Sequence record: PZ379176.1
Direction: 5' to 3' (one strand)
Origin: a phage
Length of the DNA: 64,000 bases
The notes under the pieces: generated by a model
What the model saw: the letters and a program-made list of their open reading frames with translations, nothing else
What the model was told of the DNA's origin: nothing
Databases searched by the model: none
Shown: positions 12,884 through 15,214 of the stretch, piece by piece
Position numbering within the stretch: position 1 is the stretch's first letter
Layout of the letters: the number at the start of each line of letters is the position of its first letter
Position numbers and translations under genes: made by a program

Positions 12884-12959
12884 GCGCTCTTAGCTCAATG
12901 GATAGAGCAGTAGCCTTCTAAGCTATTGGTTACAGGTTCGAGTCCTGTAGGGCGCACCA
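12884..12959 (+). tRNA. tRNA-Arg (anticodon UCU), CCA encoded
   Basis: Manual cloverleaf: acceptor GCGCTCT/AGGGCGC, D-arm GCTC/GAGC, anticodon loop CTTCTAA, T-arm ACAGG-TTCGAGT-CCTGT, discriminator A + CCA. Confidence 0.85.
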
Positions 12960-14238: not shown

Positions 14239-14728
14239 TGACTGAAGAATTTTTAAAGTGGTTTGGTGATACCTTCAAAGAGTATCTATTCTCTCCAGAA
14301 GACTTTGAAGAACTGAAAACCTACACTTGGTTGGCTTGGAGAGATAGCCGACGAGAGATGAATAAGTAATATCGTGAAGGATTCTTACGAGAGTCCTTTG
14401 AGATAGGACTTCAGATCTCCTATCAAACTAACATTCATGTAACTAGCCCATAAGGGCGTTACCCTTTAATAACCCAGCCCACTAAGGGGGCGGGAGTTTA
14501 GTGCTGGATTAGCATAACGCTTATTCCTACAAAGGCAACCGATTGTTAGGTCTTACATGCAATATTAATTAATAGGATAAGGGAGGATTCGTCCCCTCCC
14601 CTATTCATAAACTATTAGGAGAGTACATTAGCTGATTAGCTGTGGAAGGTAGGCCGATATCTACAGCGTGGCCCAGAGCTAGTGTACTCCCCAATAACTT
14701 TAGGGTAAATGTGGAACAACCTTTTAAT

Positions 14729-14874
14729 TACAGGTATAGCTTATGGGACTCAGTAATGCAGAGTCTACGGTAAAGCAGTCGCCCGTGGTCGAATGACCGT
14801 ATGCCCATTGGATGCATTCCTTTGGTGATGGCTAGGGAGTCCGAGCGTAGGTTCGAATCCTACACCTGTAACCA
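14729..14874 (+). tRNA. tRNA-like element with canonical T-arm and ACCA end but about 70 nt of extra internal sequence
   Basis: T-arm GTAGG-TTCGAAT-CCTAC (14847-14863), 3-prime ACCTGTA+A+CCA; only complementary 5-prime strand TACAGGT is at 14729-14735; anticodon not resolved. Confidence 0.35.
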
Positions 14875-14902
14875 AATTGAATAATAGCTAATTGGAGGAT
14901 GT

Positions 14903-15214
14903 ATGAAAGCACGAAGAACTATATGGACTCCGATGCAGATTGAAAATCTTCGGAGACTAATCAAAGAGTACTCGGTTCAAGAAGTTGCTCAGATTATGAA
15001 TGTAACGGAGAATGCAGTTAACGCAGCTTGTACTAAATTCGGAATATCAAGAGCTTCAATCCGAGTTAAATGGTCTGAAGAAGAAGACCAGTTCCTTATC
15101 CGTAATGCTGGGTTCATGTCTATTCAGAGAATGGCTGACATGCTCGGTAGAAGTTATGCTGCTGTACAGAACAGAGCATGTATGCACCTTAACATTAGCC
15201 TCAAACTTAAATAG
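14903..15214 (+). CDS. DNA-binding protein with two helix-turn-helix-like repeats
   Basis: Two W-x-E-E-[LD] repeats each followed by HTH-like segment. Confidence 0.45.
   Translation: MKARRTIWTPMQIENLRRLIKEYSVQEVAQIMNVTENAVNAACTKFGISRASIRVKWSEEEDQFLIRNAGFMSIQRMADMLGRSYAAVQNRACMHLNISLKLK

Follow-up and report, generated by a model that had tools for sequence, protein, structure and literature searches.

A mobile, transfer-RNA-like element without D-arm or anticodon arm shared by kuraviruses and unrelated Klebsiella phages

We describe an element of 146 nucleotides (nt), hereafter type A, located at positions 14729–14874 of the + strand of a 64,000-nt stretch of phage DNA (PZ379176.1, hereafter the window). 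The window comes from the genome of a Kuravirus (phiEco32-like, Gordonclarkvirinae) and is near-identical to Shigella phage ShigP1 and Escherichia phage PGN6866. In our assessment, the element is probably a functional, horizontally mobile gene for a non-decoding mimic of transfer RNA (tRNA), which would be matured like a tRNA and may act as a decoy, a titrant, or a scaffold. Type A retains one half of a tRNA, namely the coaxial acceptor stem and T-arm (7 + 5 base pairs, bp); a 10-nt linker, a hairpin (H1), and a multi-hairpin middle of about 80 nt replace the D-arm and the anticodon arm. It is thus without the parts required for decoding. The order of its segments is UACAGGU, 111 nt, GUAGG UUCGAAU CCUAC, ACCUGUA, and ACCA, and it forms the last part of a 530-nt non-coding stretch between two small + strand open reading frames (ORFs), one ending at 14369 and the next starting at 14903. 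Its parts are listed here with window coordinates, strand, and positions in the RNA; type B is a related element presented below, and MFE stands for minimum free energy.

14729–14874, +: whole type A gene, 146 nt including the encoded discriminator A and CCA; the same ends are given by ARAGORN in intron mode (-i) and by the conserved cassette
14729–14735, +: 5′ acceptor strand UACAGGU, positions 1–7; pairs 7/7 Watson–Crick with 14864–14870
14736–14745, +: linker replacing the D-arm, 10 nt single-stranded, positions 8–17; invariant in type A and of equal length in type B
14746–14766, +: hairpin H1, positions 18–38, with a 6-bp stem GGACUC/GAGUCU and a 9-nt loop; covariation, base-pair probability 0.61–1.00
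14787–14798, +: hairpin H2, GGUC-GAAU-GACC, positions 59–70; predicted by MFE folding and RNAalifold
14805–14825, +: hairpin H3, positions 77–97, stems CCA/UGG and GGA/UCC, loop UGCAU; predicted by RNAalifold, one compensatory pair
14831–14846, +: conserved 3′ block GCUAGGGAGUCCGAGC, positions 103–118, which includes GAGTCC and lies directly before the T-arm; its type B counterpart is GCUAnnGAnUCC, and it has no assigned pairing partner within type A
14847–14863, +: T-arm GUAGG-UUCGAAU-CCUAC, positions 119–135; partial match to RF00005, stem invariant in type A
14864–14870, +: 3′ acceptor strand ACCUGUA, positions 136–142; complement of 14729–14735, with which it covaries
14871–14874, +: discriminator A and encoded CCA; invariant in every copy of types A and B
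14693–14896 (approximate), +: accessory insertion of this kuravirus lineage (spacer, gene, and trailer), from comparison with phages SU10 and FH3

The combination of T-arm, acceptor stem, and NCCA end is far beyond chance. We scanned the window for a 5-bp stem with a TTCRANN loop followed by seven bases and NCCA, with a 5′ strand complementary at 7/7 positions 55–260 nt away, and obtained exactly two matches, i.e. the tRNA-Arg(UCU) at 12884–12959 and type A. None of 300 second-order Markov simulations of the 64-kb window contained a full match, and the T-arm with NCCA alone appeared on average 0.06 times. A preliminary description, made from the letters of the window without database searches, had located the T-arm, both acceptor strands, and the ACCA end exactly where we find them. 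Its estimate of an element of about 146 nt also holds, since the cassette conserved in an unrelated phage spans 14726–14878, the acceptor stem covaries, and ARAGORN -i returns the same ends. Type A keeps U1–A72, A2–U71, A73, and CCA, and a U stands directly 5′ of position 1 in all copies. A covariance model of the family scores 190 bits at 14729–14874 in a search of the window and finds no second copy there. Between the 3′ end of the element and the start codon of the following gene (14903–15214) there are 28 nt.

Standard detection of tRNAs overlooks the element. Default ARAGORN and Rfam at the gathering threshold leave it uncalled and report only the tRNA-Arg at 12884–12959 in the window, and ARAGORN does not detect it in transfer-messenger RNA (tmRNA), mitochondrial, or low-threshold modes. 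When Rfam is used in E-value mode on 14300–15000, RF00005 matches the T-arm only (14843–14863, model positions 44–63, 14.8 bits vs a gathering threshold of 29); neither the tmRNA families, nor YrlA, nor other Rfam families match this interval with E up to 10, and no tmRNA family matches the whole window with E up to 1. One half of a tRNA is therefore present, with its 7/7 acceptor pairs, T-loop, A, and CCA, and with covariation in the acceptor stem, whereas the decoding half is not: there is no D-arm, no anticodon arm of 5 bp and 7 nt with U33, and the length is 146 nt instead of 70–95. The preliminary description had failed to fold these two arms and had proposed an intron-containing tRNA, an otherwise non-canonical tRNA, or a tRNA-like processing element; the same failure recurs in our hands, and of these options a non-canonical tRNA-like RNA survives. 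No standard tRNA of 75–90 nt with other boundaries came out of the ARAGORN or Rfam runs.

Type A is not a tmRNA either. The alanine identity pair G3:U70, present in the tRNA-like domain (TLD) of tmRNA, is replaced by C3–G70 in every copy of type A and in most of type B (U3.G70 in phage Bp4); neither ARAGORN -m nor the tmRNA families RF00023, RF01849–51, and RF04321 detected a tag frame with its resume codon or the pseudoknots of a tmRNA. We rejected this identity on the grounds of the missing pair, the lack of a conserved tag frame, and the lack of a model match. The ORFs internal to type A show non-synonymous changes on inspection of the variants. Two mini-ORFs or tags (GCA GAG UCU ... UGA and AUG CAG AGU CUA CGG UAA) were considered and discarded because their changes are not consistently synonymous and they have no equivalent in type B. 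YrlA (RF02553) has no match with E up to 10, and the termini of type A are made of the 7-bp acceptor stem directly followed by ACCA.

The structure of type A is under selection. Our comparison involved six distinct sequences with 15 variable positions, six of which make up three compensatory pairs: 6:137 in the acceptor stem (G–C to A–U in three homologues), 20:36 in H1 (A–U to G–C in FH3 and XT32), and 84:90 in H3 (A–U to G–C in XT32). Another pair of H1, 18:38, passes from G.U to A–U by a single-sided change at position 18. The other changes are in loops and linkers, save one stem-closing mismatch in XT32, and position 25 in the loop of H1 takes all four bases among the variants. The stem of H2 is invariant, its sole change being G63A in the loop, which is consistent with the model and brings no covariation support. 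With the complete model (acceptor, H1, H2, H3, and T-arm), 99.4% of the alignment cells are standard pairs, vs 23–44% when the 3′ partners are slid. G.U pairs are present only in the RNA of the + strand, in both types A and B, which argues for an RNA transcribed from that strand. Two further pairings, a D-stem-like GCUU (14739–42) with AAGC (14773–76) around H1 and an anticodon-like stem GUCGC/GUGAU around H2 and H3, consist entirely of invariant bases and we do not claim them.

The preliminary description had drawn another helix, a long-range one between GGACTC (14746–14751) and GAGTCC (14837–14842). The complementarity is there, but it does not correspond to a conserved pairing. It is paired at 83% across homologues, and pair 18:114 is broken in five of the six sequences, remaining intact only in that of the window. 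With the acceptor and T-arm fixed, the long-range helix costs 2.1 kcal/mol relative to the local H1 in this phage and 4.4–6.6 in the other five homologues. We thus rejected it as a conserved element, as it is less favourable than the covarying H1 in all six. Folding energies leave it as a possible minor alternative conformer in this phage, at 2.1 kcal/mol above the MFE structure.

Type A is a cassette of the size of a tRNA gene that travels between phage families. While 142 phage records match the intergenic region around it, the full 146-nt element is in only 13. These 13 are among 16 phage records matching the element and include 11 kuraviruses and two Efbeekayvirus (Schitoviridae), at 91–100% identity. 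The latter, Klebsiella phages HS106 and GADU21, are N4-like and unrelated to kuraviruses; they carry type A at 95% identity, the similarity being limited to the equivalent of 14726–14878, and their flanks are unrelated to those of kuraviruses. There, the element is placed head-to-tail within a tRNA array (...Pro, Tyr, [element], Ser, Gln, Ser), from whose members it is separated by CCAAAT-type trailers, and the AAAT/AAT trailer following the ACCA of type A is the one found behind the neighbouring tRNAs of HS106. The presence of the same 146 nt within unrelated flanks of unrelated phages indicates a discrete mobile RNA gene whose ends are those of the preliminary description. In kuraviruses, type A is part of an insertion of about 200 nt, which is longer in FH3 and XT32. 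It is absent from SU10 and from SLU10-type genomes, and in SU10 and most kuraviruses there is hardly any sequence between a conserved element, which we call (e) (14622–14692), and the ribosome-binding site of the gene that follows. Some kuraviruses (records PQ819470, PQ819471, and OR757434, relatives of window position ~14370) have an insertion in this intergenic region that is annotated as an endonuclease gene; these insertions fit a mosaic intergenic region and suggest a route by which RNA cassettes may spread.

Outside phages, blastn found nothing similar to type A on either strand of 5,426 E. coli genomes, which speaks against a host origin and against a long antisense target, and plasmids gave just one 23-nt chance match. 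Pattern scans of IMG/VR returned only five loci, all of type A or B. A single metagenome scan with a loose 3′-end pattern produced mostly ordinary tRNAs of 74–77 nt, two further type B copies, and no third subtype. In GenBank records, type A is unannotated or overlaid by small hypothetical ORFs. Kuraviruses are described in the literature as having a single tRNA each (PMC9965538), and we found no description of the type A RNA in publications on kuravirus or N4-like phages.

A weak match to Klebsiella phage KP8 revealed a diverged relative of 124 nt, type B, which is carried by KP8-like phages and by about 45 records of Gamaleyavirus (G7C-like, N4-like) coliphages. Types A and B share a set of features that we propose to define a family: a UAC... 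acceptor with U1–A72 and A2–U71, a 10-nt linker, a hairpin from position 18, a variable middle, GCUAnnGAnUCC, a UUCGAAU T-arm, A73, and CCA. The linker being equally long in both, H1 begins at position 18 in each, with a loop of 5 nt in type B vs 9 nt in type A. A covariance model built with type A only matches every type B copy end-to-end, with H1 in register (25–31 bits, E ~1e-6 to 6e-5). The ordinary tRNAs of these loci reach at most 13–19 bits. The middle parts of the two types could not be convincingly aligned. Eight variants of type B provide four compensatory pairs (4:117, 5:116, 21:33, and 99:111), with 99.6% of cells paired; two of these pairs, beyond that of type A, are in the acceptor stem and one is in the T-stem. 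At positions 37–46 of type B (e.g. L009 756–765; L numbers designate the loci that we extracted) there is a 10-mer, UUGGACUAAG, and a neighbouring UGCAC...GUGUG pairing resembles helix 2b. UUGGACUAAG also occurs in E. coli ssrA, on the 3′ side of helix 2; with a chance expectation of ~0.04, this is no more than a hint of a descent of type B from tmRNA.

If type A is a matured mimic of tRNA, as we favour, its production would follow known paths. It would be co-transcribed with the early genes of the + strand, ribonuclease P (RNase P) would cut the precursor at U1, as predicted from tRNA maturation in E. coli, and the 3′ end would be trimmed to the encoded CCA; the product would then accumulate as a stable small RNA of ~146 nt, and its T-loop may be modified as in a tRNA. 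An acceptor/T-arm helix suffices for RNase P, which favours a U at −1 and makes contact with RCCA. In E. coli, CCA ends that are encoded arise from endonucleolytic cuts and subsequent exonucleolytic trimming. The weakest step is the following one, in which a tRNA- or tmRNA-TLD-like acceptor end, the displayed middle domain, or both would be presented to a factor of the host or phage. Alternatively, the tRNA half could provide processing and stability to the hairpin domain for which it serves as scaffold. Type A does not decode, yet it conserves U1–A72, A2–U71, A73, and CCA, which suggests that it is probably bound like a tRNA or the TLD of tmRNA, or that its tRNA half is a scaffold. We infer a role as decoy or scaffold by analogy; two precedents, T4 species 1 RNA and the TLD-only ssrA of mycobacteriophage DS6A, are described below.

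A number of observations weigh against this reading. First, divergence is low (97% mean column identity), with few independent compensatory events, and the covariation score of the type A model, which none of 500 shuffles reached, has its significance overstated by this control because the sequences are closely related. The counts from so few events in close relatives support the structural model without proving it. Second, positions 39–58 and 98–118 have no assigned fold in the model, and the MFE z-score is −1.37. Third, XT32 has the T-loop UCCGAAC, with a C at type A position 125 (equivalent to 14853 of the window), equivalent to U55, a base that is near-universal in tRNAs. This C may be a sequencing error or may reflect a T-loop under relaxed, non-tRNA constraints. 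Fourth, neither a sigma-70-like promoter nor a terminator was found beside type A, as would be expected under co-transcription; its transcription is thus predicted from the way in which the flanking genes are oriented. Fifth, as concerns the decoy or scaffold role, the G3:U70 pair of tmRNA is missing.

Several known RNAs resemble type A in part. Phage T4 species 1 RNA (rnaC, 139 nt) is a small stable RNA encoded in the tRNA cluster of T4, and no role is known for it (PMC3014915). Like type A, it is of similar size (139 vs 146 nt), stands head-to-tail with tRNA genes, does not decode, and has a tRNA-type T-arm near its 3′ end (CCGGG-UUCGAAU-CCCGG). Unlike type A, it lacks an encoded CCA, its terminal stem is imperfect by eye, and there is no detectable homology between the two: the type A covariance model finds no match in the T4 locus (L018) with E up to 10. 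The TLD of tmRNA shares with type A the acceptor stem, the T-arm, ACCA, a single-stranded linker, and the absence of D-stem and anticodon arm, and so does the TLD-only ssrA of mycobacteriophage DS6A; such TLD-only molecules are reported to be inhibitors of tmRNA, perhaps through titration of SmpB (PMC4131195). However, the linker of tmRNA is followed by the long-range helix P2a, whereas that of type A is followed by a local hairpin, and type A has no conserved tag frame. Canonical and class II tRNAs have the same 7-bp acceptor, 5-bp T-stem, UUCGAAU loop, discriminator, CCA, and array placement and spacing, but measure 72–95 nt and include the D-arm and the anticodon arm, both of which are lacking in the 146 nt of type A. 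tRNAs devoid of a D-arm, of the mitochondrial type or like the Cys(GCA)-like genes of Gamaleyavirus and KP8, also have a connector of 9–11 nt followed by a hairpin; theirs has a 5-bp stem, a 7-nt anticodon loop, and then a short variable loop, while types A and B have a variable loop of 9 or 5 nt and then 60–80 extra nt. Finally, engineered tRNA scaffolds, the tRNA–microRNA units of murine gammaherpesvirus 68 (MHV68), and the mascRNA of MALAT1 are eukaryotic, viral, or engineered cases where a tRNA-like module gives processing and stability to an attached RNA. We know of no natural tRNA-scaffolded RNA with the architecture of type A in bacterial phages.

Upstream of type B in KP8, there is a sub-threshold match to permuted tmRNA (33 bits, E 4e-5 in Rfam E-value mode). 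The sequence ...CCAAUAACAUAAAU GCA AAC GAU GAU GUU GUU CUG AUG GCU GCU UAA encodes ANDDVVLMAA, a typical ssrA-type tag, and the alleles of KP8, F22, EC1-UPM, and Bp4 show only synonymous changes (CUG/UUG; GCU-GCU/GCA-GCC/GCG-GCG). With blastn, this tag module was found in 398 phage records, including N4-like phages, Salmonella phage 7-11, P1/P7/SJ46, Ackermannviridae, Akira-like and Webervirus-like siphoviruses, Mooglevirus, and phages of Aeromonas and Vibrio. The tags always have ten codons: ANDDVVLMAA, ANDDVILMAA, ANDDLMMVAA (in P1, within the leader of the ban operon), ANDNAFRVAA, ANEEMYLAVA, and ANDNVFLAVA. ARAGORN calls no tmRNA at these loci, Rfam scores are below gathering thresholds, the modules are unannotated, and no tRNA-like domain can be recognised within them. 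In the 2014 census of tmRNA, phage ssrA was restricted to mycobacteriophages and Bacillus phage G (PMC4131195). Positions of the modules within their loci are as follows.

KP8 (L003), 1297–1329: tag module
L009, 598: tag module
L012, 271: tag module
L013, 372: tag module
P1 (L141), 1546–1578, i.e. NC_005856 ~68,944: tag module
Phage 7-11 (L142), 1546: tag module
Akira (L143), 856: tag module
Magnus (L144), 842: tag module
pIS4-A (L145), 856: tag module
Sf16 (L146), 847: tag module, between two ordinary tRNAs

In Akira (L143 ~770–800) and pIS4-A (L145 ~765–795), a near-consensus sigma-70 promoter, TTGACA-N17-TAGATT, lies directly upstream of the module, which implies a dedicated tag transcript starting a few bases before ...CAGAUAGUUUUCGU. 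Element (e) of the window is composed of a 13-bp helix, GAGUACAUUAGCU/AGCUAGUGUACUC, around a structured interior of ~45 nt; it is present in all kuraviruses examined, SU10 included, and contains no tag. Its homologue in the tag module of N4-like phages is the 5′ helix. That helix covaries (GAGCACC/GGGUGCUC in L016) and its interior is hypervariable. A hairpin (14574–14606) and the motif TTGTTAGGTCTTACATGCAATAT (14534–14556), both upstream of element (e), are also found in Gamaleyavirus. Judging from these similarities, the conserved stretch of ~330 nt at 14370–14700 looks like the leader of a tag-module locus that is missing its tag.

These modules open a broader interpretation, in which types A and B are acceptor-end mimics that manipulate ribosome rescue or tRNA-targeting immunity, and belong to a wider phage toolkit of dismembered parts of tmRNA: TLD-like RNAs would titrate SmpB or another binder of the acceptor/T-arm, and tag modules would supply or subvert the tagging template. 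We regard this as a speculative extension with a small chance of being right.

Several alternatives to a non-decoding tRNA mimic have to be weighed. One is that type A acts only in cis, as a processing element at which RNase P cuts the early transcript before the next gene (14903–15214), the excised RNA having no role. The short distance to the start codon, 28 nt, is in line with this, and RNase P would find all of its determinants in type A, namely an acceptor/T-arm helix, a U at −1, and ACCA. However, in HS106 and GADU21 the element is inside a tRNA array rather than beside a coding gene, the same downstream gene is expressed without type A in most kuraviruses, and the middle of ~100 nt, dispensable for RNase P, is conserved and covaries. 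We find this alternative rather unlikely.

The second alternative is that type A is the acceptor half of a split trans-translation system, whose partner would be a separate tmRNA-like tag RNA carrying the mRNA-like domain (MLD module); type B might have this role in N4-like phages. The genetic neighbourhood of the tag modules speaks for it: type B is directly 3′ of the module in KP8 and F22, other tRNA-like modules follow it in 7-11 and Akira, and the homologue of its 5′ helix, element (e), precedes type A. Furthermore, a linker takes the place of the D-arm after the acceptor strand, as in the TLD of tmRNA. Against it, searches of the window, of the other 12 kb of the ShigP1 genome, and of the whole HS106 genome turned up no tag module; the 3:70 pair is C–G and not G.U; the acceptor stem is closed in cis; the intermolecular duplex between tag module and type B is no better than shuffled controls (duplexfold); and the modules of Sf16 and P1 have no non-canonical tRNA-like neighbour. 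The absence of a tag module from the searched genomes and the lack of a duplex that stands out make us keep the split system only as an improbable rival.

Third, the element could be a decaying tRNA gene or a scar of recombination in a tRNA array, without function. The intergenic region is indeed mosaic, with relatives showing endonuclease insertions and swapped modules, and most kuraviruses lack type A. But decay fits poorly with all 146 nt being kept at 91–100% identity and with exact ends in two unrelated phage families, with substitutions that fall outside stems or are compensated, and with a diverged type B of the same design in ~45 more phages. It is therefore very improbable.

Fourth, the preliminary description had raised the possibility of an intron-containing tRNA, and ARAGORN -i does call one with ends identical to those of type A: a tRNA-Val(UAC) that has a long variable arm and an intron of 49 nt, and that would be spliced to ~97 nt. 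Metagenomic tRNAs with genuine anticodon-loop inserts also exist (L034/L043 and L070). The ends of this call stand, but its content is forced, as it requires a D-stem that is weak, a C at position 33, a variable arm with mismatches, and an intron at the non-canonical position 41/42. Moreover, the calls are discordant (Val-UAC for type A, 'Stop-UUA' or Ser-GGA for type B), the proposed anticodon stem overlaps the covarying H1, and only the T-arm matches RF00005. Removal of the insert leaves no canonical cloverleaf, and no anticodon is constant among homologues. To our knowledge, tRNA introns in bacteria and phages are group I introns of ~200 nt or more, for which 49 nt is too short, and E. coli lacks a tRNA-splicing endonuclease. 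Without a D-arm, an anticodon arm, or a consistent anticodon, and with discordant intron calls, type A is hardly conceivable as an intron-bearing tRNA.

Finally, a protein-coding or DNA-level signal (small ORF, promoter, origin, or endonuclease target) can practically be dismissed: a 43-codon GTG ORF (14642–14773) overlaps the first 45 nt and the annotation of GADU21 has a 30-codon ORF on the opposite strand, but no ORF of at least 40 codons covers the element, the 43-codon one crosses a spacer that is variable or absent in relatives, and the variation consists of base-pair compensation with G.U pairs specific to the + strand, not of codon periodicity.

Type A is thus an undescribed addition to the non-decoding tRNA-like small RNAs of phage tRNA clusters. 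T4 species 1 RNA was sequenced in the 1970s, and companion non-decoding RNAs have been without an assigned function since; type A provides a second, independently evolved, and clearly selected example. Phage tRNA genes are in part counter-measures to host defences that cleave tRNAs. Type A travels between phage families like a tRNA gene, yet it is invisible to standard annotation. If it is a decoy for a factor binding tRNA or tmRNA, it would represent a new class of RNA-based manipulation of the host; should it instead be a tRNA scaffold of natural origin, the middle domain would be a candidate new functional RNA. The tag modules are potentially more important than type A itself and, if confirmed, would change the picture of which phages interfere with trans-translation.

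The same loci contain other unusual tRNA-like genes. D-armless tRNA-like genes of 62–67 nt adjoin type B in KP8 (L003 1687–1753) and Gamaleyavirus (L012/L013 642–707); they have a 9-nt connector, a hairpin loop GUGCACA (GCA, Cys-like), a T-arm, and ACCA, were labelled tRNA-OTHER or tRNA-Cys(aca) by the depositors, and are mostly missed by ARAGORN. KP8 also has a 76-nt tRNA-like gene (1077–1152) with a good acceptor stem, T-arm, and GCCA and an aberrant D and anticodon region, which is annotated as tRNA-Leu and receives no call from ARAGORN or Rfam; its acceptor strands UCCCCGU/ACGGGGA recur in the terminal hairpin of the tag module. In phage 7-11 (L142), two non-canonical tRNA-like modules (1670–1750 and 1754–1835), with a T-arm, a 7-bp acceptor, and no encoded CCA, are directly 3′ of the tag module, unannotated and without an ARAGORN call. 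A shared module, ...GTCCAGACGATATCTGAGTGACTWTAAAAACAGATGGAGCCAGGTGGAATCCCTGGCAATYAAT, precedes differing tRNA-like genes, namely type A in FH3 (L005 ~900–1000) and XT32 (L004), and the D-armless gene in KP8 (1600–1685) and Gamaleyavirus; it may be a portable promoter, a processing signal, or a recombination joint. Among the loci caught by the 3′-end pattern, L034/L043 (metagenome, 692–807) carry a tRNA of 116 nt whose D-arm, T-arm, and anticodon stem are canonical and whose anticodon loop has a 47-nt insert. L070 (618–765, minus strand of the locus) carries a 148-nt tRNA(CAU), likely archaeal, with an insert of ~70 nt at 37/38, and L040 (4037–4130) a 94-nt class II tRNA with the amber-reading anticodon CUA.

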